In this document: positions 2,160 through 36,901 of the stretch, piece by piece
How the letters are laid out: each line of letters begins with the position of its first letter
Numbering within the stretch: the first letter of the stretch is position 1
Origin: a virus
Direction: 5' to 3' (one strand)
Virus record (IMG/VR): IMGVR_UViG_3300029309_000014
Span: 5,323-69,322 of that record
Length of the DNA: 64,000 bases
Position numbers and translations under genes: made by a program
Notes under the pieces: generated by a model
Database searches by the model: none
Seen by the model: the letters and a program-made list of their open reading frames with translations, nothing else
What the model was told of the DNA's origin: nothing

Positions 2160-2163
2160 TATA

Positions 2164-3485: not shown

Positions 3486-3490
3486 GTCGA

Positions 3491-3535: not shown

Positions 3536-3542
3536 TGGAAAA

Positions 3543-3582: not shown

Positions 3583-3594
3583 GAATATTTTATG

Positions 3595-4503: not shown

Positions 4504-4516
4504 ATCTAATTACTCC

Positions 4517-5140: not shown

Positions 5141-5158
5141 TATCTAGTCCTCTTCTTA

Positions 5159-5611: not shown

Positions 5612-5622
5612 GATCTATTCCT

Positions 5623-6528: not shown

Positions 6529-6530
6529 TC

Positions 6531-8521: not shown

Positions 8522-8548
8522 ACCATATAATCGGTAAAATATGAATCA

Positions 8549-8761
8549 TTAATAAAGCTCCGTATTTTTATTCACCTTAACAGGCTTACAATACGCAGTA
8601 GCTCGGTGTTCTGCTGGAACAGAACTAAGACTACCATAATTTCCATACCTCTTTGTTACTTGCGATGCAAAGTAATTACAATCAACTATAGATCTGAAGT
8701 ACATATCTCTGCTCTGAACTTCACCGCCTAATACCACTACCAGTAAAAAAGCATGGATCAT
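8549..8761 (-). CDS. Small Cys-containing protein with hydrophobic N-terminus
   Basis: 70 aa, two Cys. Confidence 0.55.
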   Translation of the reverse strand: MIHAFLLVVVLGGEVQSRDMYFRSIVDCNYFASQVTKRYGNYGSLSSVPAEHRATAYCKPVKVNKNTELY

Positions 8762-9075
8762 TTCTTTGCCATATATGCCTGTGCGCCAAAGTAAAAACCT
8801 ACAATAGAGGCTTGACTTAAAAATAACATATCACTAAGACTTGCCAGAAACTCTAATCTTTTTTCTGGTATCCACGGTACAAGTGGCAAAAGTGCGAAAC
8901 CAACCATACTAGCAACAGCAACCCAAGCCATTCGTTTTTGGGCATCTGCCTTTTCCTCTCGCAACTCTAACTCAAGCATATCCTTCGCATGAGCTATTTC
9001 CTCATCGGTAACAGTACCATCATTATCTAAATCATACTGTGCAAACCTAGAATTTTCTGATAAGGATTTTGGCAT
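8758..9075 (-). CDS. Membrane protein with EF-hand-like loop (holin-like)
   Basis: DLDNDGTVTDEE loop followed by two TM segments. Confidence 0.6.
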   Translation of the reverse strand: MPKSLSENSRFAQYDLDNDGTVTDEEIAHAKDMLELELREEKADAQKRMAWVAVASMVGFALLPLVPWIPEKRLEFLASLSDMLFLSQASIVGFYFGAQAYMAKK

Positions 9076-9078
9076 CGT

Positions 9079-9309
9079 TTAAAAAACACCTTTAAACTTT
9101 GTTCCTTGCAGAGCTGCTCTACCACCACGCGAAAGAGAGCGTTTTGCAACCTCACCAGTTCTAGGGGAACCCTTACTGCGATTAGCAATACCTCTGCGCT
9201 TAAATTCTTCAAATGACATAGTTTCATCATAATTGCCATCATAAAACATTTCGCGCAGTGCTTGCTCTGGATCAATGGGTATTTCTTTTACATCTTTATC
9301 ATCTGCCAT
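9079..9309 (-). CDS. Small protein ending in SRGGRAALQGTKFKGVF
   Basis: 76 aa ORF in the gene run. Confidence 0.6.
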   Translation of the reverse strand: MADDKDVKEIPIDPEQALREMFYDGNYDETMSFEEFKRRGIANRSKGSPRTGEVAKRSLSRGGRAALQGTKFKGVF

Positions 9310-9318
9310 TAGGGTCTC

Positions 9319-10488
9319 CTAATCTAAAATATCTGTTAATGAAGCGATGCCACTTTTCCCAGCTTTTAAAGCTGCTTCATATGCTTCTTGTAAATTTGTC
9401 GTATCAAACCCAGATGAGCCCCTGTTCCGAGAAGTACCCACAGGGTTGCTAGTATAGGTTCTACCTTTTCGTGCTAATGTCGGTGAAAGCTGTTGCATTT
9501 TATCCCGCATAGCACCGAAATTAAAAAAAGCTAATTGATCAGCAGTAGAAGGACCACCTAAAGCACGGAAAGATGTATCTATGTTTTCTGGTGTAATACG
9601 AGAATCAGGTTCTCTATCTGGAAACCCTACATTTACATCACCAAAAGGTGTAGGCACATCTACAGTACGCGGCAAACCAAAATAATCTAAAGCATCATTT
9701 ACTGACGGTCCTGGAGGAGGAGCTATGTTTAATTCGGGTATAGTGACAGTGAGATCATCTAAATTAAATGCTGTTTGTTGTGTTCCTGGAGGCATACCAG
9801 AAGTGGTGGGGGCAGTATAATTATCCTGCATAAACTGTCCTGCTTTAGTTTGGGCTCTGCCAAGAGGAGCATCATCAGGGCGACCTGTATATTCACCAAT
9901 AATACTATCTTTACCCACTACTGTACTACCAGAAGCTATCCCTTGATTTTTTGTTGCAGGATTTGTTGTAGAACCTAGCCCCATCCTGCCAGCAATAGTA
10001 TTTGCTAATCCAACAATACCTTTCACAGTATCAGTTCCAGGAACAACTGCCGATAATATACCTAATGGTGTATTTCGTCCAGGAACAACCATATTCTCTA
10101 TATTTTGACCAAAACTTTTTTTAGTATCGTAGCCAAACATTCCAGGAATATCTGTTGGCTCTCTATACCCTAATTGATCAGCTACATAATTTTGTGTAGA
10201 AGTAGCATATGGATTCATACCTTGAGACAATGCATCTAAAGCCGCATTATACGCATCCGCTCCTGGACCAGACATTCTACCAGTAGCTTCATACCCAACA
10301 TTGCCACCACTTTCACTAAAAGGGCTGTCTTGTCTACCAATGCCAGAGCCACCGCCATCGCCACCACCACCACTAAAAGTATCGGCCGTTAAACTACTCT
10401 GTCCTTCACCCATACCTCCGCCAAAAGAGCCACCGCCATAGCCGACGTTGCCTCCACTTTCACTATCGGGACCATCTTGTCTACCCAT
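9319..10488 (-). CDS. Gly-rich low-complexity protein, possibly an internal virion protein
   Basis: Duplicated GRQD..SESGGNVGY motif; C-terminal GIASL; directly downstream of portal. Confidence 0.6.
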   Translation of the reverse strand: MGRQDGPDSESGGNVGYGGGSFGGGMGEGQSSLTADTFSGGGGDGGGSGIGRQDSPFSESGGNVGYEATGRMSGPGADAYNAALDALSQGMNPYATSTQNYVADQLGYREPTDIPGMFGYDTKKSFGQNIENMVVPGRNTPLGILSAVVPGTDTVKGIVGLANTIAGRMGLGSTTNPATKNQGIASGSTVVGKDSIIGEYTGRPDDAPLGRAQTKAGQFMQDNYTAPTTSGMPPGTQQTAFNLDDLTVTIPELNIAPPPGPSVNDALDYFGLPRTVDVPTPFGDVNVGFPDREPDSRITPENIDTSFRALGGPSTADQLAFFNFGAMRDKMQQLSPTLARKGRTYTSNPVGTSRNRGSSGFDTTNLQEAYEAALKAGKSGIASLTDILD

Positions 10489-14458: not shown

Positions 14459-14652
14459 ATTATTCTAATAATATAAAAATTTTCTCGGCGCAATGATCTC
14501 GGATCAATGTTTCAAAAAAGGGGGTATGGGTACGCTGTATAATTTTCAGAGTGGTAACGATTTGGACAGAACCGTGTACTGCGCTGGTGCTTGTACACCA
14601 CTCGTCGCGCTAGGGGGGTTGCCCTGTGGCAAAAGTGCAACAGTGTTGCAAA

Positions 14653-14681
14653 CCAGCCGCCAAGTACCTTTTGGCGGCTGG
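14653..14681 (-). terminator. Hairpin terminator after the 176-aa gene
   Basis: CCAGCCGCCAA-N7-TTGGCGGCTGG perfect 11-bp stem, followed by TTT on the minus strand. Confidence 0.65.
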
Positions 14682-14691
14682 CTGCTAGGGG

Positions 14692-15222
14692 TTAGCTGCT
14701 AACCACCAGTTTGCACAGTGGGTTGCCCCAGCCTACGCTGCTAGGGCTGCTGCCGCCAGCCATAGCCTTTAACACTGGGTTTTGGTTAAGGCTGCTGGTA
14801 ACGCTGCTGCCGCTATTAGCAGCAATAGCATTTACCATTGCAAGCGGCACAGCGGCTGGCACTTTAGTAGGCACTGTGGTTTTTAACCAGCCAAAGCTAG
14901 TAATAAACTTAGGCTTTGGTGCGGTATAGCCTTGTGCGCTAGGCTGCCAATACTTAGCTGGCAAGCCACCATTAACCATAACCCAAAGCATTTGCCCAAA
15001 GTGGCCTATTGCCTTGCCGTTGGCTGGCTGCATAGCACGCCAAAAGTTAGCACCGCCCATAAGCGCGTTGGCTTGCACGGCGGCTGGTGTTAGCTGCACG
15101 TTAATATTGCCAATGCCATTAGCAGTAATAAACGCCTTAATAGCAAGGCTGCAATAAACGCCTTGGCTACCCAAATTTGCGGCCGTAAAGGCTGCCGCTG
15201 CCTGTGTTGTTGTGTTACCCAT
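14692..15222 (-). CDS. Asp/Glu-free 176-aa protein, paralog of 17593..18051
   Basis: Long ORF with upstream AAAAGGGG RBS-like element and a terminator; collinear similarity to the 152-aa protein. Confidence 0.8.
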   Translation of the reverse strand: MGNTTTQAAAAFTAANLGSQGVYCSLAIKAFITANGIGNINVQLTPAAVQANALMGGANFWRAMQPANGKAIGHFGQMLWVMVNGGLPAKYWQPSAQGYTAPKPKFITSFGWLKTTVPTKVPAAVPLAMVNAIAANSGSSVTSSLNQNPVLKAMAGGSSPSSVGWGNPLCKLVVSS

Positions 15223-15356
15223 TGGTAAACCCCTTTTGTAAAAAGCAAAGCACCATTGCCTTGCCCTATTGTTATGGCATAGGTGGTATATGTTTGTAAA
15301 CCCCTAAAAGCACATTAATGCAAATAAAGTTATTATTGCACCAAGTATTGCCGCCA

Positions 15357-15539
15357 CTAACATTTATGCCGCCATGCGCTAATGTAACCATGCGCGGCTA
15401 ACACCAGCCCCATAACAAACATAAACACGTTTATATAATGGTGCATTGGCGGCAAGTTAAACGTGCCTAAACTAGCAAACATTAATGTAACACCAGCCAC
15501 CATATTTAACGTGCAAAAAAACATATATACATAAACCAT
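15357..15539 (-). CDS. Asp/Glu-free 60-aa two-TM membrane protein
   Basis: ATG 15539 preceded by AAAAAGGGG; MVYVYMFFCTLNMVAGVTLMFASLG..VFMFVMGLVLAAHGYISAW. Confidence 0.6.
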   Translation of the reverse strand: MVYVYMFFCTLNMVAGVTLMFASLGTFNLPPMHHYINVFMFVMGLVLAAHGYISAWRHKC

Positions 15540-15699
15540 AATAAAACCCCTTTTTGTTTGTTGCGTTATGTAAATACTTAAAAGCAAAAACACGCTCAAG
15601 CAAGCGGCAATGTGCTCAAAAAATATCGCGGCCTGATCTCTAAAGAGACCGTATATGATAGATGCGATCACGTCCAGGATCGGATGGAAAGATAGATCA

Positions 15700-15722
15700 A
15701 TCCATCCATCCATCCATCCATC
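15700..15722. repeat. (ATCC)5 microsatellite within a GATC-rich patch
   Basis: atccatccatccatccatccatc; four GATC within 15635-15698. Confidence 0.85.
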
Positions 15723-22915: not shown

Positions 22916-23443
22916 TCAAACGCTTAAATTATAATGGATTAGCACTTTATTCACTGGTTCAAAATCAGCTAAATCAGAAAACTTTTTATAGAGATAGTTG
23001 ATGCCTGTGTGCATTATCACTTTCATCTGGTCACTTTGATTTGAATGGCGATGGGAATAGAGTACGAGTTCAAGCATATCTGCCATTTTCAATCTATTCT
23101 TTTCTTCTGGAGTGAGAACAAATATCAATCCAAGGTCATCCATCACTTTCTTTTCAGCATCTTCAAATGCTTTATGTACCTCAGGAAAAGACCATTTAGC
23201 TGTGGCTGGTATATCACCAAGAATGAGTTCAGGTACATCATGGTACAATGAAGCCATAATCAATTGTTTTGTACTATCAGGCCAAAGCTGGTCAATCAAT
23301 ATACTTACTGCGTATGAATGTGCTCCCACTGTCTGTCTCTCTGCTTGCATGGCAACTGTGTGGAAGCGCAATAAGAACTGAGCATCCCACGCTGTTGTCA
23401 AAGTTTTAATGTTCGGTATTGTCTTGCATTGGCGTTGCGCCAT
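22916..23443 (-). CDS. HD-domain 5'-deoxynucleotidase (YfbR-like)
   Basis: RFH..QTVGAHS..LYHDVPE..GDIP..KMADMLE. Confidence 0.82.
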   Translation of the reverse strand: MAQRQCKTIPNIKTLTTAWDAQFLLRFHTVAMQAERQTVGAHSYAVSILIDQLWPDSTKQLIMASLYHDVPELILGDIPATAKWSFPEVHKAFEDAEKKVMDDLGLIFVLTPEEKNRLKMADMLELVLYSHRHSNQSDQMKVIMHTGINYLYKKFSDLADFEPVNKVLIHYNLSV

Positions 23444-25325
23444 CGCTTACCCCTCTTAACCACGGCTTATCACTAAATGTTTTCTTTGCTTCGCCCCAAC
23501 TCGGACCAAACTCAGCATCTACCACACTTGGTATTTGCATATCAACACATGTCTGCATTATTTCTTTTATTTTCAATCCATTATCCGGATCACCAACTGA
23601 TATATCTAATTCATCATGCACTTGTATGAGGGGTACTATCCCTTCTTTATGCAAAGCTACCATCGCAGCTTTTGTCTGATCGGCAGCACTGCCCTGTATC
23701 AATCGGTTAAGTGCTTTATAAGTGAAGGCACGTTTGATAGCTGGACCATGCTCTGCATATGCATCCTCATATTTCTGTGGTTTATACAATCCATACGCAT
23801 TTGGTTCCCACTTATCAAACCTACATTTGCGACCAAGCAGGGTACGGATAACACCTTTATTAGAAGCACGGTTGACTACATAATCAGCAAGCTGTTGAAC
23901 AAAGGGGACTTTACCGTGGTACTCAGCAAATAAATCTTTAGCATCTTCAAACTCTAAACCAAGCTGCTCTGCCAGTTTATTCTTACCCATCCCATAAAAC
24001 AGACCAAGGTTTATATCTTTAGCTTGTTTGCGTGGCACTCCTACAATATCGGCAGCCATCTGGTGAAAGTCTGTATTAGCATCTACATTGTATTGGTCGG
24101 CAAACTCTTGTGCGCCTGTCAATTTAAGTAGACTTGCATAATGAACAACGAGCCGTGGTTCTTGGCTACTGTAATCAAAAGCCCCCCACAGTTCACCTTC
24201 TTCTGGTAAAAACAATCCGCGTATCATCGGACCAATCTCAGCATTCCTTGCTGGCACTTGCTGTAGATTAGGATTGCTATAACTAAAACGACCTGTAACC
24301 GTCCCACCATCATCACTGCGAAGGCTGTGTGCTTCCGCATGAATGCGACCATTATGTTGGTGCTTTATAATAGTATCGATAAAAGTAGTTCTAGCTTTAT
24401 TCAGCTCACGAGCTCGAACCACAGCCTGAGGTAATGAATGGGCATGGTTAGCTAGAAAATTTTTAGTAAAGCTAGGCTGTCCTGATTTGGGCGTTTTAGG
24501 GTAAGTCAACCCATTTGCATCAAATGCTTTAGCAATACTAGCTGCTGCCCATATATCAATATTACTGCCACCAGCTTCTTGTAATACTTTTTCTTCTTCA
24601 GCTTGCAGATACTGTTTTAACTCTTCAGCTTTACCAAGGTCTACACGCACACCTTTTTTACGCATGTCAAATACAACTTTGAGGACATTTAACTCAAGGT
24701 CAAATATATCTCCTACATCTTCTTTCTGTATGAGACCCTTAAAGAACTGCCATAGCTTCAGGGTAAGTGCCGCATCCTGTTCTGCATATGCTCCAACAAA
24801 ATGAGCTGGGAGTTTATACATCTCACTCTTAGCATTTACACCAAAAGAGTTAGCTGCTTCATATAAATCCCTTTCACTCTTACGTTCATTAAGGTAATCG
24901 CGACCAAGAGCATTTAAGGCATAACTAAATCTGTTTTCATCAAGTAATGCGGCAACAACCATTGTATCAACAATACGACCTTTTACTTCTATACCTTCTG
25001 CCCATAACCATCCGAGGTCATACATAGCATTATGCATAATGTAATCGCGCTCAATAGAGCATACATCAGCCAGCCAGCGGAGGGTTTGCTTTGCATCTAA
25101 ATTACTGCCATTTTCATGCCTGATTGGGAAATACCAAGAAGCACCATCTACAGCTACAGCGACGCCAATTACATAACCATCATTGCGAGGCCAGCCACTA
25201 CCCCGAGAAGTAAGGTTAGGGTCACAAGTTTCTAAATCAATAGATACTTCCCTAGCCTCTGCTAAGTTGGGATAGCCATCAGGCATAACCCACTCAGTCG
25301 GAGGTGTGAATAGAGGAAACTGCAT
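23406..25325 (-). CDS. polA: DNA polymerase family A with 3'-5' exonuclease
   Basis: DLET Exo I, HNAMYD Exo II, TGRFSYSNPNLQQVP, FDYSSQEPR (A), RKQAKDINLGLFYG (B), QVHDEL (C). Confidence 0.95.
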   Translation of the reverse strand: MQFPLFTPPTEWVMPDGYPNLAEAREVSIDLETCDPNLTSRGSGWPRNDGYVIGVAVAVDGASWYFPIRHENGSNLDAKQTLRWLADVCSIERDYIMHNAMYDLGWLWAEGIEVKGRIVDTMVVAALLDENRFSYALNALGRDYLNERKSERDLYEAANSFGVNAKSEMYKLPAHFVGAYAEQDAALTLKLWQFFKGLIQKEDVGDIFDLELNVLKVVFDMRKKGVRVDLGKAEELKQYLQAEEEKVLQEAGGSNIDIWAAASIAKAFDANGLTYPKTPKSGQPSFTKNFLANHAHSLPQAVVRARELNKARTTFIDTIIKHQHNGRIHAEAHSLRSDDGGTVTGRFSYSNPNLQQVPARNAEIGPMIRGLFLPEEGELWGAFDYSSQEPRLVVHYASLLKLTGAQEFADQYNVDANTDFHQMAADIVGVPRKQAKDINLGLFYGMGKNKLAEQLGLEFEDAKDLFAEYHGKVPFVQQLADYVVNRASNKGVIRTLLGRKCRFDKWEPNAYGLYKPQKYEDAYAEHGPAIKRAFTYKALNRLIQGSAADQTKAAMVALHKEGIVPLIQVHDELDISVGDPDNGLKIKEIMQTCVDMQIPSVVDAEFGPSWGEAKKTFSDKPWLRGVSDGATPMQDNTEH

Positions 25326-25467
25326 CGTTTACTTTTACCTTCATAGGTTGGTTACATTTAGAGCAGTGAGGCCATTTGTTTTTGAGTTTGCGAAAAGTCA
25401 TTACCCTCTTTTCCCTACCACACTCACACTCGGCTAATACTTCTCTATCCAGCTTTTCGTTTACCAT
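25294..25467 (-). CDS. Small zinc-finger protein (CxC..CxxC), missing from the ORF track
   Basis: Manual translation MVNEKLDREVLAECECGREKRVMTFRKLKNKWPHCSKCNQPMKVKV.., 57 aa. Confidence 0.55.
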   Translation of the reverse strand: MVNEKLDREVLAECECGREKRVMTFRKLKNKWPHCSKCNQPMKVKVNDAVSSIHTSD

Positions 25468-25858
25468 TACCTCGCATTCGCACTTCTGCTTCTACAAGAA
25501 ATAAATACCGACGTAAGTCACGGATATCATCAAGGATACCTTCCTCACGCATATCATCAAAGGCAGCTTTAAATACATCATAATTATATTCTGTAACTTG
25601 TTTTTCAAGCCTATCCCATTTACGAGCCAGCATCATAAAAGCACCAACACCGCCACGCTGCTTCCAGCTATCACCGTAAGACTGCTCTGAATTATGTAAC
25701 CCTTCTACATCTTGATTAGCTAACCCAACGATATTATTAACAATAGGGCTATAATCATCAGGGGTAATATCACCGTTTTTTGCCATATTTGTATACTCCT
25801 CCCAATCTAATTCCTGCATACGCCTTTTCATGTATTGTTCGTGGCTTTCTCTTGCCAT
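25445..25858 (-). CDS. Nucleotide-modification-associated all-alpha protein (Nmad1/DUF1599, MazG-like)
   Basis: SYGDSWKQRG..RKWDRL..ILDDIRDLRRY. Confidence 0.65.
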   Translation of the reverse strand: MARESHEQYMKRRMQELDWEEYTNMAKNGDITPDDYSPIVNNIVGLANQDVEGLHNSEQSYGDSWKQRGGVGAFMMLARKWDRLEKQVTEYNYDVFKAAFDDMREEGILDDIRDLRRYLFLVEAEVRMRGNGKRKAG

Positions 25859-26856
25859 TTATCTCTCCTACGTTCTAACCATTCCCAAGTAGCTAAATGC
25901 CAATCATCGGGTTTTATATCTGCACAATGGTCAAAAGCTAAAGCTAATTCTTTAGCTTTCCATGCTTGCCATACTCGGTGCATAGGTTGTGCCAAATCGG
26001 AGAAACAGGAATTTATATATGGTCTTGGCCTTTCAGTATCTTCCATAAACCATTCTAACTCTTCATCAAATGATTCTATATTATTTACAAGAGCATCTGG
26101 CCTAATCATACGCACATTGTATGATTCATAATCAGGGTTCATACCCTCTAGCTTTTTTAATACTTCAGTATAAGCATGAAGGTTATTACTAAACTGTGTA
26201 TAGATACCAACACTCGCGCCAATGCGAGAGGCTATATACTCTTGAAGAATGGACATATGGACAGCATTAGCTCCCAATGCACCCCAGATCATATCATTAC
26301 TACGGTTACATACTGTCATATCCAATATATTATCACGCACATTAAAATAGATATGAGTATTACAGGGATGGTCTTTACAGCTATTACTCATCCGTAAATC
26401 ACCCTCAGCATCCCACATTGCTAGAACTGCTCGTCTATCATTTGTATGTGTCATCAACCTGTGGATGATTACATCAATCTGATCACGATGAAAGTAATTA
26501 CGCCAACGGTATCCGTATGCTCCCTGTAATATTTTACCATCATCACTATACTCACCCATCCGTGCATTATAGCGTTGTATCCACTCTAAATCATTACGCC
26601 CTGCTAACATCCACAGGCTTTCCATAAAGTGAAATATTGGGTTTGCATCACGTTCGGGGTAAAACAGTACACGCTCGCGTGGGTTATTGTAGACAATAGC
26701 ACATGGTTCACGGAACTCAATTGCTTTACCATTACGAGTTTCTACTTCTACACCATTAGCTTCTAATGCTTGCTTCACAACAAACAATGCTTCGCTTACA
26801 TTTCCTACGGTGAAAGTATGCACCCCTCGCATGGGTGCTTTGCCATATAATGCCAT
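25828..26856 (-). CDS. Thymidylate-synthase-fold enzyme, probable dUMP hydroxymethylase
   Basis: Catalytic PC (KDHPCNTH); RSNDMIWGALGAN with Asn at the dUMP-specificity position; NLHAY; context of hypermodification genes. Confidence 0.8.
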   Translation of the reverse strand: MALYGKAPMRGVHTFTVGNVSEALFVVKQALEANGVEVETRNGKAIEFREPCAIVYNNPRERVLFYPERDANPIFHFMESLWMLAGRNDLEWIQRYNARMGEYSDDGKILQGAYGYRWRNYFHRDQIDVIIHRLMTHTNDRRAVLAMWDAEGDLRMSNSCKDHPCNTHIYFNVRDNILDMTVCNRSNDMIWGALGANAVHMSILQEYIASRIGASVGIYTQFSNNLHAYTEVLKKLEGMNPDYESYNVRMIRPDALVNNIESFDEELEWFMEDTERPRPYINSCFSDLAQPMHRVWQAWKAKELALAFDHCADIKPDDWHLATWEWLERRRDKWQEKATNNT

Positions 26857-26939
26857 ATTTAACCGCCTTTCTATGGGGTTTTAAAGCTGCTACAGCAGCC
26901 TGATTTAATTTGCCCTACCCTATTACTAAAAGCAACCCT

Positions 26940-27959
26940 CTAGCTTTCTGAGTAGCCTGTAATAAAGTCAAAATGTTTCTTAACTCTCTTAGTATAAGTG
27001 CCTCCTCTTAACGCCTCCTTGATTGCAAGCGTTGTTTCCTCAGTAGGCTCGGGTAATGCCTTGCGTCCCATGCGGTCAGGTAACAATCCATTACGCAGAG
27101 TGGTATTGTCACAACCGTTACAAGGACCGAAATCACGTTGCCCATGATACAATTTTGTTCTCGCTGCATGAAATGCTTCCCCCTGCCATACTTCTTCCAT
27201 TGGTACATCAACTACATTGCCACATTTGTACCATCCAGGCCAATCGTTACAGCAAACAGCGACATTACCATCCCAACGTATAGACATTTCACGGAAAGGT
27301 TTAGCGCAGCGTTTACCATCTTGTTCATGGTTTAGATGGAAAGCGTTACCAGCGTGGTTACTGACTTGGGCATGGGTTCCGCTTGTAGCGAGCGTAAGAT
27401 CCATTCCAACAACGATAATATGTTCTGTAACTTTTCGTCGTTGGTGAGGGTTTGCGTTGCGCTCTGCAGGGTATTCGTATACAGGGTATGGACCATTATA
27501 TCTCTCCTTTATTTTATCTACTATTTTGATACGATCATAATTATCAAGAAACAAAACATTAAGTCCTGCTTCCATCAGTTGGTTGACACTTTTTTGAGTG
27601 TCGCGTAAAAGACCACCGCCATTGCTTGTCATCATAAGAGAAGTTTTTGGCAACTCCTGACGGAATAGTCTAATCATGTCTATGAAGAAAGGGTGCATAG
27701 TCGGCTCACCGTGCATGGCAAACTCTAGCCGTGGGTTCCATCCTGCTTCTTTTATACGGTCACAGATAGACCTTGCTCTTTCTATTGTTAAATATCTGTA
27801 AGGGGCAGATGCTTTACCATGTATATTTTCTGGACCATCTGCTTCATTTTCACGTATAGATTGTATGCCGCAAAAAGAACAAGCAAGGTTACACCCCTCT
27901 GTTAATTCAATCTGAATAGAGTTGGGTGGGTCTTGGTGATAGTTAGATTGCACCGCCAT
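26940..27959 (-). CDS. Radical SAM enzyme with SPASM/twitch-like C-terminal domain
   Basis: CNLACSFC, HGEP, MTSNG; C..PF..IRWDGNVAVCC..CNGC. Confidence 0.88.
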   Translation of the reverse strand: MAVQSNYHQDPPNSIQIELTEGCNLACSFCGIQSIRENEADGPENIHGKASAPYRYLTIERARSICDRIKEAGWNPRLEFAMHGEPTMHPFFIDMIRLFRQELPKTSLMMTSNGGGLLRDTQKSVNQLMEAGLNVLFLDNYDRIKIVDKIKERYNGPYPVYEYPAERNANPHQRRKVTEHIIVVGMDLTLATSGTHAQVSNHAGNAFHLNHEQDGKRCAKPFREMSIRWDGNVAVCCNDWPGWYKCGNVVDVPMEEVWQGEAFHAARTKLYHGQRDFGPCNGCDNTTLRNGLLPDRMGRKALPEPTEETTLAIKEALRGGTYTKRVKKHFDFITGYSES

Positions 27960-28728
27960 CTTTAGCTGCCTTTCTCCATTGAACACGAACATCCCAACGT
28001 GTTTTCATACCCTCCCATCCTGTTTTAGTTTCTTTCTGCACTGCTTTTACATACAGTGGAAACTCTTCAGCTAATGCCCTACTTGCCTTTTCTTGTAACT
28101 CTGCATTACGGTATGAACTACAACCACCAGCCGCACCAGAAGCACCACGTTGATCCCATGTCCAATCTACAATTACAGCATTACGATGCCCTGATTGAAA
28201 CAGTTTAAGGGTAACATAATAATCCTCCATTAAGTCCATAGTATCGTATCTTATGCCTAGCCCATGAATAATTTCAGGACGTATAGCATGAACAGCATTT
28301 TGTCGCATACCGTACTTAATTGTATCAGGAAAATGTTTATCGTTCATTTGTCGTGGGCTAAGACCAACATGGGTATGGTTCATTAACAACCACTCCATAC
28401 GCTCCCATAATTCGTGCATTTCTTCTTGGTTTGTTTTTCTTAGATTTGGAATATCCCCAGATATACGCCTCCCAAATATAAGATCATCATCCAAAACAAT
28501 AATTTTATCATGCCCTGCCTCCATAGCGTGTTCTAATATGAACTGCCGTACATTATTGATTCCTTTAATTTCACCGCGATTTATACAATCACGCCCCTGT
28601 TTGGTATGCCAATTTATTTCTTCTTGTGGGCAAACAAGAGCAGCATACTCTCGGGCTTCCGGACCAATACTATCCCAAGTAATTTGGTTATTCATCCTAC
28701 CCCTTGTTGGTATATATATTGGTATCAT
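27943..28728 (-). CDS. GT-A glycosyltransferase, TET/JBP-associated (TAGT/GREB1/base-J-glucosyltransferase-like)
   Basis: IYIPTRGR..GINNVRQFI..IVLDDD..MEDY..GGCSSYR. Confidence 0.75.
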   Translation of the reverse strand: MIPIYIPTRGRMNNQITWDSIGPEAREYAALVCPQEEINWHTKQGRDCINRGEIKGINNVRQFILEHAMEAGHDKIIVLDDDLIFGRRISGDIPNLRKTNQEEMHELWERMEWLLMNHTHVGLSPRQMNDKHFPDTIKYGMRQNAVHAIRPEIIHGLGIRYDTMDLMEDYYVTLKLFQSGHRNAVIVDWTWDQRGASGAAGGCSSYRNAELQEKASRALAEEFPLYVKAVQKETKTGWEGMKTRWDVRVQWRKAAKDGGAI

Positions 28729-29033
28729 ATCTCATCCTCATCAAATCTTACTTGGCCTGTCATAATAGCTTCTTCTAGCTCTTCATCTGTAAGGGTGCGT
28801 ACATCTTCTAACTGATTCCATACTTTAGGGTTTTTCACTTTTGGTTTTAATTTTCTTTTCTTTGGTTTTACCAATTTCAGTTTGGGTGGCTCTTTGCTCT
28901 TGGGTGGCTCTAATACTTCCAATGTCCGATAGCTGTACTTGCATTTCTGACAAATCCTCTTCCTCCGTATCGTGCTTTCGTAGGATCGACTGTCTACGAC
29001 GGAAGATCTGCCATTGCATTTTGGACACAACAT
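28725..29033 (-). CDS. NrdR-like zinc-ribbon protein lacking the ATP cone
   Basis: MLCPKC..SSVVDSR..IRRKRICQKC..YRTLE matches the NrdR N-terminal pattern. Confidence 0.7.
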   Translation of the reverse strand: MLCPKCNGRSSVVDSRSYESTIRRKRICQKCKYSYRTLEVLEPPKSKEPPKLKLVKPKKRKLKPKVKNPKVWNQLEDVRTLTDEELEEAIMTGQVRFDEDEI

Positions 29034-29035
29034 AT

Positions 29036-29932
29036 TTACGCCACCTCCCCATTAACAGCCTCCAGCATTGAACCTTGTAATCCATTATACTTACTACGAG
29101 GAGTGCCTTGACCAAGACGTACACGCTCATACTTATCCCACTCGCAAAGGCTGTGTTCAATACAACGCATATCCACAGCCAGAGTCGGGATGTGATTGCC
29201 AAGATAACGGTGCGAATCTTCGAGTAAATCGTGCATCTCCCTATTGCTTTGATAAGCACCTAACGCTTTTGTAAGAGGTCTATCATGGATTCTATTGAGG
29301 CCTCGTTTTGCTCCTGGACCTGCATTTGCCCAACTAAAACGGTCTTTTGCCTTGTCCAATACAGGTGTGTAGTTGAGGTCGGTAACCACCTCGTATGACA
29401 TAAAACCTCCTCCTCCCCACCCTTTATACTTAGCCATCGCTTCATGTACCGCTTGGAGCGACTGCGTTTCGGTGGCAATCTGCGCCAACGCTTCTTTGTT
29501 CTCCCATATTGGCGAAAGGAAATAGTCAACTACTACCTCTGATTTTGGTAACTTGAGTCCTTGGTTAGTGATTATATAAGCACCAGTAAATGTCCGTAAA
29601 CCCTGCTCAAGCCGAGCCTTTATCAAGTCTTTAGTAAAAGTAGGGTTAAAATCGTGCGACCAACCATGTGCATCAGCAAACTCACTAGTCCCAACCATAC
29701 GAAACATACAGCAATTAAATATAATTTCACCATGTGGACGGTTACTATTTGGCTTAGTAAAATTCTGTCTCATCCACACAGTAACCCTATCATTCTCACG
29801 GAAAGGATTAGTAAACTTATAATCGCGTAATATAGGGTCATCAGTCCAAGGGGCTGGTTGCCCCTTGGCTCGTTTTTGGTAAATAGCGTGACGCTCGTTT
29901 ATCCAGTAGCAGAACCTTTCTATGTTCTCCAT
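29036..29932 (-). CDS. aGPT-Pplase clade 1 thymidine-hypermodification protein (HhH-glycosylase-like fold)
   Basis: ERHAIY..PWTDDPILRDYKFTNPFRENDR..FTGAY..GFMSYEVVTDL..GPGAKRGL..EHSLCEWDKY. Confidence 0.82.
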   Translation of the reverse strand: MENIERFCYWINERHAIYQKRAKGQPAPWTDDPILRDYKFTNPFRENDRVTVWMRQNFTKPNSNRPHGEIIFNCCMFRMVGTSEFADAHGWSHDFNPTFTKDLIKARLEQGLRTFTGAYIITNQGLKLPKSEVVVDYFLSPIWENKEALAQIATETQSLQAVHEAMAKYKGWGGGGFMSYEVVTDLNYTPVLDKAKDRFSWANAGPGAKRGLNRIHDRPLTKALGAYQSNREMHDLLEDSHRYLGNHIPTLAVDMRCIEHSLCEWDKYERVRLGQGTPRSKYNGLQGSMLEAVNGEVA

Positions 29933-29935
29933 AAT

Positions 29936-30553
29936 CTATTCTCCTAACTGGATACAGCCTTTTTCGATAGCAAGGCGAATATCAACACTATTGCCTCCTG
30001 GACTCAATGCTTTCATAGCGGCAAGTGCTTCACCCACTGTGTTTGATTTTACAAGGGCTTCAAAATTATGCCACCGATTACTACCCTCGCGGTAAGGGTT
30101 TTGGTACACACCTGAAGCACCAGCGATCACAAGTATCTTTGCATTTATGTTATACTTGGATTTAGCTACACGCTTTGGTTTATCGGTTACAACAGCCTCA
30201 ATGCCTTGTGGCTCAGGCGTGATATCTACTACTTCAGCAGTCATTTGTTTCTCCTTTGAAACAGGTTTATATTTTTTAGCTCGCTCATGTACAAACTCAG
30301 CAAAGTTTTTATGGAAGCTGGGATAGTTAGGCAGGGAACACTCACCCTGAGTAGCAGCAACCACACTCCGTAACTCTTCTTCACTATATGTATCCTGTAA
30401 TTGTTGTACTTCTGAGAATACAATACTGTGTTCGTTTAACTCTTTACACCCTTTTAGTTCGCGTAAAGATTTGAAAACAAAGTAAGAATACGCATCGTTA
30501 CGGTTACTGGTATTATCATTTTCTAACACCGCATATGTTTTGATAGCTGCCAT
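29936..30553 (-). CDS. Hypothetical protein with C-terminal NPYREGS..TVGE..D..G.IQL domain
   Basis: 205 aa; TAGAAAGGAGG RBS; first gene of the modification operon. Confidence 0.7.
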   Translation of the reverse strand: MAAIKTYAVLENDNTSNRNDAYSYFVFKSLRELKGCKELNEHSIVFSEVQQLQDTYSEEELRSVVAATQGECSLPNYPSFHKNFAEFVHERAKKYKPVSKEKQMTAEVVDITPEPQGIEAVVTDKPKRVAKSKYNINAKILVIAGASGVYQNPYREGSNRWHNFEALVKSNTVGEALAAMKALSPGGNSVDIRLAIEKGCIQLGE

Positions 30554-30698: not shown

Positions 30699-31724
30699 TT
30701 AAGCAGCATACTCAAGTGCTTTAGTCATAGCTTTACGCTTAGTGCTTGCAGCTGAACCAAACCATGCAGAGTTAAGTGCATGGTCACGAGTCTTGGCTCG
30801 CTTTTGGTGATCCATAACATAAGTAACACCATTCAGTGCTCCCCACCAAGTACCCTTGGCAGACTTTAGGTCATGTCCTGGAGATGTTTCAATAGCCTCC
30901 AGTATAGACTGGGAGGTTTTAGTAAACTCCTCATGCAGAGGTGGTAAGTCAGCTTCCTTAGACTTAGCACGTTCAATAAGCAGTTTAGGTTGGAACAACT
31001 CGGCAATGTAGTTATCGATCTGCTCTTTGGTAGCTCGCTTACTGGCAAGGAACTCTGACTGTTCTTGGAACTTAGTCATTTGCTCACCACTAATACCGAG
31101 TGCAGTTTCAGCCGCTTGCATAATTTCCTCATCAAACATTTGTAAATGCAATACACGAAACTTACCAGTCATACCCTCTTGGTTAAGAGCTAGGGTAATC
31201 GTATTGTTACATACAACACGGATAGGTGTGAACATTACAGTCATAGCTGTGCCGACCTTATGGCTATTTGCCATAAGCAAGTAACCTTCAATATCATCAC
31301 CGCCAGCCAGCTTGAAGCCTTTCTTAATTTTAGCCAAGCCCCAAACACGCTCACCATCACTTAGGCTACCAGCCGTATCCATCTCCATATGCCCTGCTTC
31401 AGTAAACTTTTTAAAGAAGGACATTGTTTCGTGGTTTTGGAAAGGTACAAACCCTTCACCACAGTGGGATAGTACACGGTTATCTGTATCACGAACAACC
31501 ACATAATGTTCGTTAGCGCGAAGCATAGCTGCTTCACCGCGTGGGTCATTAAGATCCCATGTATTAGGTTTATCCGCATAATAGATAGGACGTTTACTTA
31601 CTGTCCAATCAAGCCCTGCGGCTTTGAGCATCTCTTCGGGTGTAAGGTTATGCTCAACTTTTTCACCAAGCCCATGCCAAGGAACCTGTCCTGCATAAGC
31701 CATTGTTTCTACCATATGTGCCAT
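30699..31724 (-). CDS. DUF932-family phage/plasmid protein
   Basis: MAHMVETMAY..VPWHGLG..AGLDW..TPIRVVCNNT..GTWWGALNGVT. Confidence 0.85.
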   Translation of the reverse strand: MAHMVETMAYAGQVPWHGLGEKVEHNLTPEEMLKAAGLDWTVSKRPIYYADKPNTWDLNDPRGEAAMLRANEHYVVVRDTDNRVLSHCGEGFVPFQNHETMSFFKKFTEAGHMEMDTAGSLSDGERVWGLAKIKKGFKLAGGDDIEGYLLMANSHKVGTAMTVMFTPIRVVCNNTITLALNQEGMTGKFRVLHLQMFDEEIMQAAETALGISGEQMTKFQEQSEFLASKRATKEQIDNYIAELFQPKLLIERAKSKEADLPPLHEEFTKTSQSILEAIETSPGHDLKSAKGTWWGALNGVTYVMDHQKRAKTRDHALNSAWFGSAASTKRKAMTKALEYAA

Positions 31725-32103: not shown

Positions 32104-33621
32104 TTATGCTGGGATTTGATAGCCACGGCTGTACATTGGATGTACCAGATGTAGATGTTGTAAAGCGCGAGTAAGCCCCACATAAAAAACGCGAGCCTCA
32201 TCCAAATGTTCGTTCTCAAACTTTCGCCACATAGAATAGGAACGACGCATAGTATCAGTGAGAAGCATAACGTGATCAGCTTGCGCTCCTTTTGCAGAAT
32301 GAATCGTAGAGATTCGGATACGAGGCTCCTCCGTTAATGACTCACCTTTACGGAGGCAAGCCATAATATACCTTTTATCATTTTCTGATATTTTACCTAA
32401 TCCTTCATCCCAAGGTAAGGTATGCAATAAACCATGGAAATCTAACAGGTCTTGCATAGTATAACGCTGGTCAGATTGTCCTTTACTAAAAGTCTTATGA
32501 CCATACTCAACTTGGCTACCTAATAACATCTGGCTGTATATTATACGCACCTGTTCAGCATTGAGTGAAGAGCCATTCCTCATATTTTCCCATAAACGCA
32601 CAGCCTCTAAAACTTTACCATCAATAGATTTACTGCCATTATAGATATATAGGTGACCTCTACGACGCACTTCTTCTTCTATTTGTTTTGCGCCTCTGGT
32701 TGTACGGCTTAATAGAAGCCACTCACCACTGCTCATATCTACTTCTTCGGAGTGCCTATGCCAGTTAATATAACCATCCTCATCCCTTGGGTTGAACTCT
32801 TTGGGTCTGCGGTCAACCACTCGTTGAATAACTTTTTGACTAAGTGTATGGTGGCTGGCGGGAATCCTGTAACTTTGATCCAGAACAGTAACAGAACCTT
32901 GCAGCCCTATGAAGTAATCTACATCTGCACCAGCATAACGGAATATGGCTTGGTCATCATCGCCAGCTACAAACATCTCTTTGGAGTTAGCCTGTAATAG
33001 ATGAACCATACTCCACTGTAATGGTGATAGATCTTGTGCCTCATCAATAAACACAACCTCTAGTTTTGGTGCTAACTCTCTATAACAAAACTGCTCAAGC
33101 ATATCCGTATAATCAAAAAGCTGGTATCTATCTTTCCAAGCTCGTAACCCTCTATCTACATAATCCACCCTTGCCCAATCTGTTTTAAGTGGAACGGTAG
33201 ATTCATTGTAGGCTTTGCGTAGAGGTTGTTGTAGGATCCTAGATATATTAATGATCTCTAAAAACTTATCACCATAACCAAAATCTTTGTATGGACCTTG
33301 GTCAGTAAGCCCTGAGTTAAAAAACCCACCTATCTTTAACCACTCACCAATCTCAGGGAATTTATCAGCAGTCATAATCTGGTTATGATTTATACCCATC
33401 TGCATAAATGCCAAGCTATGTAGAGTCCGGAAAAAAGGTAAGTCACGCCTATGTAATTTAAACTTTTCACAAGCACGATCAATAGCCTCACTTGCTGCAC
33501 GACGAGTAAAACCAAAGTAACCTATGCGATCTGGTGGGACACCCTTTTGTAAGTACTCTTCGACCTTATTCAGTAAGTAGGTTGTTTTCCCTGTTCCTGG
33601 AGGTCCGAGTATTATATTCAT
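32104..33621 (-). CDS. UvrD/Rep-like SF1 helicase
   Basis: GPPGTGKTT, FRTLHS, IDEAQD, GDDDQAI, QSYR, STIHSAKG, YVGLTRA. Confidence 0.92.
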   Translation of the reverse strand: MNIILGPPGTGKTTYLLNKVEEYLQKGVPPDRIGYFGFTRRAASEAIDRACEKFKLHRRDLPFFRTLHSLAFMQMGINHNQIMTADKFPEIGEWLKIGGFFNSGLTDQGPYKDFGYGDKFLEIINISRILQQPLRKAYNESTVPLKTDWARVDYVDRGLRAWKDRYQLFDYTDMLEQFCYRELAPKLEVVFIDEAQDLSPLQWSMVHLLQANSKEMFVAGDDDQAIFRYAGADVDYFIGLQGSVTVLDQSYRIPASHHTLSQKVIQRVVDRRPKEFNPRDEDGYINWHRHSEEVDMSSGEWLLLSRTTRGAKQIEEEVRRRGHLYIYNGSKSIDGKVLEAVRLWENMRNGSSLNAEQVRIIYSQMLLGSQVEYGHKTFSKGQSDQRYTMQDLLDFHGLLHTLPWDEGLGKISENDKRYIMACLRKGESLTEEPRIRISTIHSAKGAQADHVMLLTDTMRRSYSMWRKFENEHLDEARVFYVGLTRALQHLHLVHPMYSRGYQIPA

Positions 33622-35232: not shown

Positions 35233-36033
35233 TTAAAAAGGCACATCATCATCAGTTGCTATACCTTTATCCTCAGGTGCAGGAGGGGCTGTTTCTTTAA
35301 CCTCTACTTCACCAGCTTTTACTGATTTAGCAAAAGCTACAGCCATCTCAAACACATTAGCTTCTTCAGCATCGCCAAGGCTTATCGGACCGATTTTACT
35401 AATTTCCCAACCGAACCAATTACCTTTATCATTGCTTTCAGCAACAGTAGATAGCTGGTATTTATGGGACATCATAGGCAAAGTGTACGGACCATTTTTA
35501 CCCTGTGCCGTAAGAGCTTGCATTTGTGTAACCCATTTACGAGCCTTCTTTAGCTGTGTGCTAGACATGGTAATCAGGCAACGCTGTGGACCATCATCAT
35601 CAAGCAGGATTACAAAGAACTGTGCAGTATTAGTGAGTATATTACCATTTGGCAGAATATCTTCACCACGCTCATTCTTTGTTGTAGTGTTAGTAATAGG
35701 GTCATCTGGGTGGTATGAACCAAAGTAACCACCACCTTTTTCCCTAGGAGCCCACTCTACAAACCTACGATTGTAATAGCATGGCACTACAGTCACACCC
35801 TTCTCACCATCGTATGCTTTATTAGCTACTGTATTAAACATCATACCAGCTTCAGCACCCTCAACATAAGCACCATCGCGCTTATTCACTTGTGGACTAA
35901 GTTGTGCTAATATCCGTAAAAACGGTACAGCCATATCTTGGGAAGTGGTTTCTTCAAAACCCAACCCACCTAAATCTTCAAACTGTGCTACTGCTACAGC
36001 AGAAGACTCTTTCTTTGCTACTTCTGTTGCCAT
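35233..36033 (-). CDS. Putative single-stranded DNA-binding protein
   Basis: PFLRILAQLSP..MSSTQLKKARKW..KGNWFGW; acidic DDDVPF C-terminus. Confidence 0.7.
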   Translation of the reverse strand: MATEVAKKESSAVAVAQFEDLGGLGFEETTSQDMAVPFLRILAQLSPQVNKRDGAYVEGAEAGMMFNTVANKAYDGEKGVTVVPCYYNRRFVEWAPREKGGGYFGSYHPDDPITNTTTKNERGEDILPNGNILTNTAQFFVILLDDDGPQRCLITMSSTQLKKARKWVTQMQALTAQGKNGPYTLPMMSHKYQLSTVAESNDKGNWFGWEISKIGPISLGDAEEANVFEMAVAFAKSVKAGEVEVKETAPPAPEDKGIATDDDVPF

Positions 36034-36035
36034 AT

Positions 36036-36578
36036 CTACCTCCGTATTTTGGCTCGCTGCCCCACAAATATTCCCAACAGGTCATACGGCAAATTCTCAC
36101 CTTTTTCTACCTGTTCCTTCACAAACGACTTGAGAGTCATGGGTTCAACCCAAGTCTTAGTTTGTGTTTGCAAACCGCGCTGTTCAAGCTCGGCAAGCAA
36201 ATCTTTAGCAGAGTTATCCTCACCACGGCCAAAAGCCGCTGTAACGTGGTTCTTAATTAGCGAACCATGCCCTGCTGTAGTAAGCCATTGAAAGGCTTCA
36301 TCCTGACGGTCTTTAGCAATGCTTGCACTATAATAAGGTGCAACAGTAATCTCACTGCCATCATCCATCTTGAGTTCAGTAACACCATACTCTTGCAAAG
36401 CTGCTGGCAATAAATCTTCTGCCACTTTACGATGCTCGCGTTTAGCGTCCTTTAACTCTAACTCTAGATCAGCAATGCGCTTTTCTAACGCAATTTGTTG
36501 TTTGCATAGGTTACTCACAGTGCTGATACCTGATTGATTTATGCTGGTTAGGTCTCCAGCTACACTTTCAAAGTCCAT
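36036..36578 (-). CDS. Conserved replication-module protein
   Basis: Coiled coil followed by AFQWL..GHGSLIKN..VEPMTLKSFVKE. Confidence 0.7.
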   Translation of the reverse strand: MDFESVAGDLTSINQSGISTVSNLCKQQIALEKRIADLELELKDAKREHRKVAEDLLPAALQEYGVTELKMDDGSEITVAPYYSASIAKDRQDEAFQWLTTAGHGSLIKNHVTAAFGRGEDNSAKDLLAELEQRGLQTQTKTWVEPMTLKSFVKEQVEKGENLPYDLLGIFVGQRAKIRR

Positions 36579-36901
36579 TATATAGACTCCTTCCTATGAT
36601 ACAGATCCACTTCCAAAGGATAGTAGCGTTCCTCTAGCCTGTCCCACTTCAATGCTTTGAACCTACCGTTATTCAAACGAGCTGCTTCTGCACAAGCAAT
36701 GCCTATACATAAAGGGTCACCTGACATTAATAGGTAATCATTATCATTAAAGTTACGAAGACCACGAGCAATCCTACGCACCGTTGGCTGAGTGCTGAAT
36801 GAAACCTGTTCCTTGGCCGGAACAAGTATCTGCAAGTCACCAAAGGCAACTGCATCTGTGATATCTCTACCACGCACTTCTTGTGTAATGTAGACTGTCA
36901 C
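36578..36901 (-). CDS. Conserved hypothetical protein (DYLLMSGDP..LKWDR)
   Basis: 107 aa; GTG start after TAGAAAG. Confidence 0.65.
   Translation of the reverse strand: MTVYITQEVRGRDITDAVAFGDLQILVPAKEQVSFSTQPTVRRIARGLRNFNDNDYLLMSGDPLCIGIACAEAARLNNGRFKALKWDRLEERYYPLEVDLYHRKESI

Follow-up and report, generated by a model that had tools for sequence, protein, structure and literature searches.

In this study, we analysed a gene block of an uncultivated marine phage, carried by the viral contig of IMG/VR record IMGVR_UViG_3300029309_000014. The window, by which we mean the whole stretch of 64,000 nucleotides that was analysed, is the last 64 kb of this 69,322-base contig, and nearly all of its genes lie on the minus strand. 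The block occupies positions 22916-30553 of the window, is present in a single copy in the contig, and has every gene on the minus strand. A preliminary description had read it as an operon for the hypermodification of 5-hydroxymethyluracil (5-hmU, hereafter hmU) in DNA. The genes are listed below in their order of reading.

29936-30553, minus strand: p205, at the head of the block; without a Pfam, PHROG or NCBIfam family
29036-29932, minus strand: PF18723 protein (HMUDK_hel, formerly aGPT-Pplase clade 1), stand-alone, without a kinase domain; Pfam E 1.6e-50
28725-29033, minus strand: NrdR-like Zn ribbon protein of 102 amino acids; Zn_ribbon_NrdR PF22811, E 2e-10
27943-28728, minus strand: TAGT-family glycosyltransferase (GT) of the GT-A type; PF20691, E 8.9e-15; phrog_842, E 1.8e-43
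26940-27992, minus strand: BtrN-like radical S-adenosylmethionine (radical SAM, rSAM) enzyme; Radical_SAM, E 2.4e-9, and SPASM, E 1.2e-11
25828-26856, minus strand: thymidylate synthase (TS)-fold enzyme, predicted deoxyuridine monophosphate (dUMP) hydroxymethylase; Thymidylat_synt, E 2.8e-20; phrog_5131, E 1.3e-104
25445-25858, minus strand: p137, a small conserved protein between the TS homolog and Pol A; no family
25294-25467, minus strand: Cys-rich protein of 57 amino acids with a CxC...CxxC pattern; no family
23406-25325, minus strand: Pol A with 3'-5' exonuclease; PF00476, E 5.8e-58; PF01612, E 1.7e-6; phrog_17, E 2.4e-112
22916-23443, minus strand: HD-domain YfbR-like 5'-deoxynucleotidase; PF12917, E 1.4e-8; phrog_6047, E 3.1e-34

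Families were assigned by hidden Markov model (HMM) searches of Pfam, PHROGs and NCBIfam. In current Pfam, PF18723 is named HMUDK_hel, PF18724 (formerly aGPT-Pplase2) is named ADDT, and PF18748 is the P-loop 5-HMUDK. The earlier gene list was confirmed except for the label "Nmad1/MazG-like" of p137, and p205 had been omitted from that list.

The preliminary description had noted that a P-loop kinase and a pyridoxal phosphate (PLP) enzyme were lacking from a window spanning a full genome length. Both statements were borne out, the genome being a unit of about 59 kb with a CheckV completeness of 100 for the contig. We scanned 82 of the 91 contig open reading frames (ORFs) of at least 45 amino acids, and neither a kinase, ADDT, PLP or flavin adenine dinucleotide (FAD) family nor Tet_JBP was found among the 82. 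In a six-frame search of the whole 69,322-base contig at E<=10, PF18748 and PF18724 had no match; the same PF18748 model was positive on M6 gp54 and Pam3 gp49. Custom HMMs, including those for the gp52-type and gp53-type proteins of M6 and Pam3 (PLP enzyme and spore photoproduct lyase (SPL)-like rSAM), also gave no match in the contig. Among the ORFs with a Walker A motif, only the one at 32104-33621 matched a P-loop family (UvrD-type helicase), and the others lay among structural or packaging genes or had no family match.

The product of p205 takes the position that the P-loop kinase has in M6, Sonora and Pam3, 5' of PF18723. It carries no Walker A motif. An AlphaFold2 (AF2) model with a predicted local distance difference test (pLDDT) value of 73 showed two small domains joined by a disordered linker (residues 100-131), and a search against PDB folds gave no match (best E 0.8). 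The protein evolves fast, with 52-60% identity in relatives whose rSAM is 74-77% identical. With no family, Walker A motif or fold match, a role of p205 as a hidden kinase was rejected as unsupported.

The TS homolog was compared by pairwise scores, with one biochemically known deoxythymidine monophosphate (dTMP) synthase and one known dUMP hydroxymethylase among the references. Bit scores were 257 with M6 gp58, 145 with SPO1 gp29 (annotated as dUMP hydroxymethylase) and 53.5 with a T4-like td, and identity to the M6, YuA and Pam3 counterparts was 42-45%. Each of the NCBIfam TS equivalogs scored far under its cut-off on this protein. The catalytic Cys is present in a "PCN" motif. An Asn at the dUMP-specificity site had been proposed earlier, and the alignment agreed: the Asn of "GAN" aligned with the uracil-specificity Asn of TS and with the Asp of cytidine monophosphate (CMP) hydroxymethylase. 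Asn thus stands where the signature of dCMP hydroxymethylases, as in T4-type glucosyl-5-hydroxymethylcytosine (5hmC), has Asp. These results suggest that the TS-fold enzyme is a dUMP hydroxymethylase, as predicted from homology. The HD nucleotidase likely serves pool control, for example by removing dTMP; in M6 and Pam3, as in distant relatives, a member of the YfbR-like HD family likewise lies next to the TS homolog.

The TAGT protein matched PF20691 over model positions 1-205 of 205, with 55.6 bits against a gathering cut-off of 27.5. Relatives were found in only 6 of 50,697 phage records, and a sequence search of the PDB returned nothing meaningful. From its family and gene context, this enzyme is predicted to glycosylate hmU in DNA.

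For the rSAM enzyme, translation likely starts at 27959, since the relatives begin at Met12. The radical SAM site C34xxxC38xxC41 was invariant in 15 of 15 diverse relatives. C229, C247, C248, C291 and C294 were also invariant in these 15 and aligned with the C-terminal domain of BtrN, in a region that Pfam calls SPASM. A PDB profile search with the enzyme and its relatives gave BtrN as the best entry (E 1.7e-13), followed by an entry at E 0.05. In a Foldseek search with the AF2 model (pLDDT 73), BtrN was again the top match, with an E-value of 5e-9 and a template modelling (TM) score of 0.68-0.71 depending on the target. It was followed by anSME and peptide maturases, and the sugar-acting rSAM enzymes SpeY and DesII were also listed. 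In keeping with its PDB title, BtrN oxidises the ring carbinol of 2-deoxy-scyllo-inosamine, which is a sugar-like secondary alcohol of a cyclitol. The substrates of DesII, SpeY and BtrN are free sugars or cyclitols, and anSME converts a CH2OH or CH2SH group to an aldehyde. The phage enzyme shares with BtrN, the 2-deoxy-scyllo-inosamine dehydrogenase of butirosin synthesis, the CxxxCxxC motif and, as predicted from matching Cys spacing, one C-terminal auxiliary-cluster domain. Unlike BtrN, to which it is about 16% identical, it is encoded by a virus in a DNA-modification context, and it exceeds BtrN in length by 80-100 residues, with inserts that are modelled at low confidence. These results suggest a BtrN-like enzyme with a twitch-type auxiliary cluster domain, as predicted from sequence and model. 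The family is large: 1313 of 2327 candidate proteins belonged to it at E<=0.001, many from ocean surveys and all generically named, and 7 records matched among 50,697 deposited phage genomes, at 23% identity. In one distant relative, the rSAM homolog (G014:C1:31522-32526) has one in-frame TGA that is read through.

The match of the PF18723 protein spans model positions 4-276 of 281. The protein is 34% identical to M6 gp55, and identities to M6 gp55, Sonora gp42 and others range over 34-39%; GenBank depositors label such homologs aGPT-Pplase clade 1. Residues D185, D197, G205-P206-G207, C263, E264 and K267 were invariant in 65 of 65 distinct relatives. When the family was aligned by hhalign with three ADDTs, the local and weak alignment (E 0.055) placed "IEHSLCEWD", which holds Cys263, against "VETVLCKWK", whose Cys is residue 247 of M6 gp51. 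Cys247 is the catalytic nucleophile of the ADDT PaMx11 gp46, according to the available text of PMC11472151. We also predicted the complex of the rSAM enzyme with PF18723. The score was 0.53 (runs of 0.53, 0.38 and 0.55), and the best of three controls scored 0.00. The runs, based on self-built alignments, had at least 58% of contacts in common, with a partner pLDDT of at least 86. In calibration, 58 of 80 solved complexes passed, as did 2 of 110 mismatched pairs, and the passes at 0.60 or below comprised only 7 of the 80 solved complexes plus both passing mismatches. Docking of the rSAM enzyme on PF18723 is thus weakly supported by the models.

We then compared the cassette across related viruses. 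Scanning IMG/VR twice, we collected 81 distinct contigs whose rSAM enzyme is 43-99% identical, and family HMMs were built from the fetched sequences (loci are numbered with L and whole contigs with G below). The TS homolog was present in 76 of the 81 contigs, PF18723 in 71 and TAGT in 60. Two GT-B families without a Pfam or PHROG match, one called X330 (25/81) and a second type (7/81), replace or accompany TAGT in related cassettes. Examples of these genes are found, in two groups, at L061:5955-6992, L076:938-1912, L081:4837-5841, L082:4163-5236, L083:7942-8943 and L085:5268-6269, and at L068:6027-6998 and L088:8291-9430. In a protein atlas, both families grouped with glycosyltransferase clusters (0.97-0.99), some of which carry T4 AGT (PF11440) or T4 BGT (PF09198), and the X330 structure resembled GT1/GT4-type clusters with a TM score of 0.76-0.86. 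At least one GT accompanied the rSAM enzyme in 77 contigs, and a 78th had a weak match.

The kinase, ADDT, the M6-type PLP enzyme, the M6-type rSAM and Nmad5 were each found in 0 of the 81 contigs. Detection of these five families in M6, Sonora and Pam3 serves only as a sanity check, as these phages supplied the training sequences. A tblastn search with the five kinds of protein also found none in 59 loci. The earlier view that the cluster departs from the M6, ViI and phiW-14 type therefore held, with kinase, transferase and PLP enzyme absent both here and in all 81 related contigs. Ten contigs lacked PF18723: six are cut off on the expected side of the gene and L090 on the other side, and L059, L097 and L105 have full flanks.

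Variants of the cassette were also seen. In L105 (7963-8895), the rSAM gene adjoins a Tet_JBP dioxygenase that replaces the TS homolog, so that a source of hydroxymethylpyrimidine is linked to the rSAM enzyme in 77 of the 81 contigs (76 TS homologs plus L105), at rSAM identities down to 43%. In L059 (8061-8708) and L097 (8283-8936), TAGT and rSAM are followed by a DUF2284 metal-binding protein, with a GT9 or methyltransferase gene nearby. The L061 cassette contains a nucleotidyltransferase-cupin (ManC-like) sugar-activation gene (5114-5977). From the counts across the 81 contigs and these variants, the stable core appears to be a hydroxymethylpyrimidine source, a DNA-type GT and the rSAM enzyme, with PF18723 tracking the TS-based versions.

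From the observed gene content, absences, conservation and structural likeness, we infer the following chemistry. The TS-fold enzyme would hydroxymethylate dUMP, and the HD nucleotidase would help to bias the nucleotide pool. The phage Pol A would then incorporate 5-hydroxymethyldeoxyuridine in place of T. TAGT would take a sugar from a nucleotide-sugar of the host and attach it to the 5-hydroxymethyl group in DNA, forming an O-glycoside like that of base J, as its family and context suggest. The BtrN-like twitch enzyme would oxidise or rearrange a hydroxyl-bearing carbon of the sugar on DNA, a role suggested by its nearest solved relative and by its constant pairing with a GT. PF18723, an ADDT paralog with the nucleophilic Cys kept, would probably flip out and engage the 5-substituted uracil, and may either present the base to the rSAM enzyme or process residual hmU. 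The final base would be a tailored glycosyl-hmU of a kind not described earlier. On balance we lean, if only slightly, towards this kinase-independent route from hmU through glycosyl-hmU to an rSAM-tailored sugar on DNA. It is the best-supported route because the system is not of the M6 type, the GT and the rSAM enzyme travel together, and BtrN is the nearest relative. The preliminary description had offered glycosylation followed by radical-SAM tailoring as an example of such a route. The co-travel of GT and rSAM (77/81) and the likeness to BtrN speak for it, and the chemistry, the order of the steps and the nature of the sugar are conjectural.

Several points weigh against this route. To our knowledge, the TAGT members characterised so far act on 5hmC, and activity on hmU is assumed. 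The likeness to BtrN is modest (16% identity, model pLDDT of 73), and the function of the rSAM enzyme is hard to read from a modelled fold whose next matches are anSME and peptide maturases. A cultured member is lacking, the best of the 50,697 phage records being 23% identical. The enzyme could also act on the nucleotide-sugar donor before transfer. PF18723 follows the TS homolog rather than the GT or the rSAM enzyme, and the full-flank loci L059, L097 and L105 keep GT and rSAM without it. Its alignment with ADDT is weak (hhalign E 0.055), and the weakness of the predicted docking counts in the same direction. Searches of the PDB with PF18723, by sequence and by HMMER profile, found no relative. 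Because of this, its likeness to the solved ADDT PaMx11 gp46 rests on the weak hhalign result and on a statement in the literature about a "paralogous pair". Finally, M6 gp55, the PF18723 protein of M6, was dispensable in vitro (PMC8989533, available text). The role proposed for PF18723 in the pathway is thus tentative, since the protein tracks the TS homolog, is absent from three full-flank loci and was dispensable in vitro in M6.

We considered how else the same genes could work together. The rSAM enzyme, docked on PF18723, might act on the 5-hydroxymethyl group of the base, for example to give 5-formyluracil or a C-C bond, and so replace activation by a kinase, with PF18723 and/or the GT completing a non-O-glycosidic adduct. 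PF18723 accompanies rSAM in 71 of the 81 contigs, in some of them, for example L063, as its immediate neighbour; the cassette has no other activating enzyme, the catalytic-type Cys of PF18723 is kept, and anSME, which makes aldehydes from CH2OH or CH2SH groups, is the second-best fold match. The complex prediction (0.53 against 0.00 in controls) adds weak support. However, the best match, BtrN, targets the secondary alcohol of a cyclitol, literature searches found no precedent for a base-directed step of this kind, and in L059, L097 and L105 the GT stays with rSAM despite the loss of both PF18723 and the TS homolog. Because the GT is retained in these three loci, the rSAM enzyme appears to be tied more to the sugar than to PF18723, and we regard action on the base as unlikely. 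We find it quite unlikely that the enzyme instead works on the donor, turning a nucleotide-sugar into, for example, its keto or deoxy form for later transfer to hmU-DNA by the GT, and never touches DNA itself; the DNA would in that case carry an unusual glycosyl-hmU. Such a scheme would fit the free sugars and cyclitols on which BtrN, DesII and SpeY act and the sugar-nucleotidyltransferase of the L061 cassette. It would also require three unrelated GT families, all paired with one conserved rSAM, to accept the same unusual donor, and most cassettes, this one included, lack a sugar-activation gene. The weak predicted contact of rSAM with the DNA-directed PF18723 also disfavours it.

Two further explanations question the pathway itself. 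The genes may not form one pathway: the TS homolog, PF18723 and the HD nucleotidase could serve hmU or T metabolism, and the GT and rSAM could be auxiliary genes that happen to be housed in the replication module and whose target is not DNA but a small molecule, a protein or a glycan of the host envelope. Glycans of the host surface are a frequent target of phage GTs; here, however, GT and rSAM are flanked by PF18723 and the TS homolog within a single block of genes read in one direction, the hydroxymethylpyrimidine source is kept in 77 of the 81 contigs, and the GT families are of DNA-directed kinds (TAGT, and GT-B proteins resembling T4 AGT and BGT), which makes a non-DNA target very unlikely. 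It seems most improbable that a hidden kinase, encoded by an unassigned ORF (p205, p137 or the small Zn proteins) or by the host, phosphorylates hmU-DNA for PF18723 to act as the transferase. The syntenic position of p205 upstream of PF18723 and the ADDT-like Cys of PF18723 would suit such a scheme. Against it, p205 is poorly conserved and has no Walker A motif, kinase family or kinase-like fold, PF18748 was matchless in six frames, and a kinase was found in 0 of the 81 related contigs. In addition, M6 gp55 was neither needed for amino-acid transfer in vitro nor able to substitute in it (PMC8989533, available text).

The cassette was next compared with known systems. It resembles those of M6, PaMx11, ViI, phiW-14 and SP10 in the homolog of a TS-fold hydroxymethylase, the PF18723 paralog, and the shared order and neighbourhood of HD nucleotidase and Pol A, and post-replicative modification of hmU would be expected as in these phages. 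In contrast to them, it has a GT and no P-loop kinase, ADDT, PLP enzyme or Nmad5, and its rSAM enzyme is BtrN-like, whereas M6 gp53 is an SPL-like isomerase. Of the features that mark the M6 type, the TS-fold hydroxymethylase (by homology) and PF18723 were found, and the kinase, the ADDT and tailoring by PLP, SPL-like rSAM or FAD enzymes were absent. A metagenome screen published in 2021 was seeded with 5-HMUDK queries (PMC8989533) and was for that reason unable to recover kinase-free clusters.

The cassette resembles the base J pathway of kinetoplastids (JBP1/2 and JGT) in that a TAGT-type GT is predicted to O-glycosylate 5-hmU in DNA. JGT is said, reportedly by Iyer et al. in 2013, to be kin to TAGT. 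The phage differs in that its hmU would be made before replication by the TS homolog and not by a JBP/TET dioxygenase, and in that its cassette adds an rSAM enzyme and PF18723. A JBP/TET dioxygenase was not found among the 82 ORFs scanned here; the relative L105 has Tet_JBP. The 5hmC sugar systems of phages (T4; TET/5mYOX with GT, Burke 2021, Pyle 2023/2024) likewise place DNA GTs of the GT-A (TAGT-like) or GT-B (T4 AGT/BGT-like) type beside a TS-family or 5mYOX enzyme, but the pyrimidine of the present cassette would be uracil (Asn, not Asp). GTs near ThyS homologs in metaviromes are noted in the available part of bioRxiv 10.1101/2023.12.21.572611, in the text of which "Radical SAM" does not occur.

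Part of the set had already been noted in pelagiphages of the HTVC023P type. These phages probably belong to the same phage group, as the Pol A DNA matches HTVC027P. They carry TS and aGPT-Pplase1, named "DNA hypermodification partner genes", with a 5'-nucleotidase and a "glucosyltransferase" near Pol A (PMC9599517, mSystems 2022). In its available text, that paper treats the set as M6-like, leaves the missing kinase and transferase unremarked and proposes no product, and "radical SAM" is absent from its main text. SP-15, YerA41 and Carin-5 also have sugar-bearing thymidine derivatives and GT and sugar-modifying genes beside the polymerase, but with a dihydroxypentyl linker and a polymerase fused to uracil-DNA glycosylase (UDG), according to the available text of PMC12686479. 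The text of that paper contains neither "Radical SAM" nor "aGPT". The preliminary description had left open that an identical gene set was already characterised with a known product. The literature search found none, with the supplements of PMC8989533 and PMC9599517 and Fig. 2 of PMC8989533 outside its scope. The cassette is thus an M6-like front end, partly anticipated in print, joined to a kinase-free combination of GT and rSAM without a described product.

The window contains a second unusual feature, which may be related to the cassette.

14605-15596, both strands: GA/TC-free island, just upstream of the large terminase gene; 991 bases without GA or TC

This is the longest GA/TC-free stretch, and the next-longest gap in the window is 74 bases. 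In 200 Markov-1 simulations, the largest such stretch was 114 bases. The longest stretches free of each of the other nine dinucleotide classes were 53-468 bases. Contigs from two further runs span the island with 0 differences. It holds two ORFs whose codons avoid GA and TC and which encode neither Asp nor Glu; for one of them, of 176 amino acids, homologs are present in G001, G002 and G003. A short (GGAT)n run lies at its upstream border (15695-15722, minus strand).

The preliminary description had named the cassette as the candidate cause of the TC/GA patterning and had called for a check of co-occurrence. We surveyed 16 whole contigs with the cassette for GA/TC-free gaps of more than four times the expectation. 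Islands were found in 6 of the 16 (G000, G001, G002, G004, G008 and G012). TAGT is carried by 11 of the 16 contigs, including all 6 with an island, and 0 of the 5 contigs lacking TAGT had one. Of the 16 contigs, G000-G004 are close relatives and three are 57-78% complete. The islands lie at the ends of G001 and at G002:19605-20337, G004:18072-18728, G012:30287-30764 and G008:2991-3258, and are homologous or analogous to the island described here. ORFs free of Asp and Glu fill those of G002, G004 and G012. When 42 di- and trinucleotide classes were ranked, GA/TC came first in 8 of the 16 contigs. Islands were not found in the two controls: HTVC027P, which has no cassette, showed a largest gap of 65 bases over 50 of its 57.6 kb, and M6, which is of the kinase type, one of 51 bases over 49 of its 59.4 kb. 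The restriction of islands to TAGT-bearing genomes hints at such a cause, and the relation is correlative and seen in 6 of 16 genomes.

In known systems, hmdU is converted after replication in sequence-specific contexts (PMC8989533, available text). Since such contexts are known, it is reasonable but unproven that a TC-specific step, perhaps that of TAGT, links the cassette to the island. The island may then read out the sequence context of the modification. These elements could be combined into one widespread class of hypermodification in ocean phages that uses neither a kinase nor an ADDT. All T would be made as hmU, and interchangeable GTs would glycosylate hmU only in 5'-TC-3'. A BtrN-like rSAM enzyme, docked on a Cys-dependent, base-flipping ADDT paralog, would oxidise or rearrange the sugar on DNA into a thymidine derivative of a new chemical type, and a recoded TC-free island of about 1 kb by the terminase gene would be kept free of the adduct. 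We regard this full combination as doubtful.

The known logic of thymidine hypermodification is to phosphorylate hmU and to displace the phosphate with an amine, and the cassette suggests a second logic based on a sugar and a radical. Such cassettes are common in marine viromes, as judged by 1313 rSAM relatives and 81 viral contigs, and have no close relative in 50,697 deposited phage genomes. They offer a candidate hmU glycosyltransferase acting on DNA, a first candidate for an rSAM enzyme acting on a DNA-borne sugar, and a possible function for aGPT-Pplase1/PF18723, so far an orphan family. Should the modification prove TC-specific, the GA/TC-free islands would be accounted for, and there would be consequences for restriction evasion, for sequencing bias in viromes and for DNA-labelling tools.

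Among the small proteins of the block, p137 remained without a family above cut-off in Pfam, searched up to E<=10, and without a match in PHROGs at E<=0.001. Its earlier assignment to Nmad1/MazG was unsupported, with no family match at any threshold tried. It is 49% identical to Pam3 gp54, which the depositors annotated as "nucleotide modification" and which likewise has no Pfam family. In the relatives L060-L072, p137 is 52-65% identical, and the TS homolog there is 42-50% identical. The Cys-rich protein of 57 amino acids keeps its position in relatives. In the NrdR-like protein, PF22811 covers residues 1-39 and is followed by a Lys-rich middle and an acidic tail. No tblastn match to it was found in L022-L024 or in 58 of the 59 loci L047-L105, where other cluster genes matched; the sole exception, L073, is on the same contig as L025. 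By this distribution, the NrdR-like Zn ribbon appears to be a dispensable accessory.

The ends of the contig are similar to each other. Contig positions 1-9825 and 58959-68709 (window 1-4503 and 58970-63387) align at an offset of 58,958 bases with segment identities of 66-81%, and the capsid gene occurs in two diverged copies within these duplicated ends (window 3595-4503 and 62476-63387). Because of this similarity at a fixed offset, the contig looks like a circularly permuted unit whose assembly continued into a related strain. The portal and adaptor proteins match SU10-type families, and the Pol A gene matches Pelagibacter phage HTVC027P at the DNA level. The stretch was present, in whole or in part, in 20 of 24 listed marine, seawater or estuary metagenome runs from 10 studies, 4 of which are possibly the source. 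These results indicate an uncultivated marine phage that is podovirus-like and akin to the HTVC023P/027P pelagiphages.

Outside the block, homologs of the cyanophage Pam3 gp32, gp33 and gp34 families adjoin the primase gene at 35233-36901; the Pam3 genome has a full M6-type set of kinase, ADDT, PLP and rSAM genes. A DUF932/TIGR03299 protein is encoded upstream of the block at 30699-31724. Between 20010 and 32031 (minus strand), the motif YATAGAARGG has 6 copies where 0.57 would be expected, and each copy is on the coding strand. In five cases the start codon of a replication or modification gene follows 8-10 bases downstream, and the sixth copy falls within the PF18723 gene at its 5' end; the motif may be an extended ribosome-binding or regulatory element.

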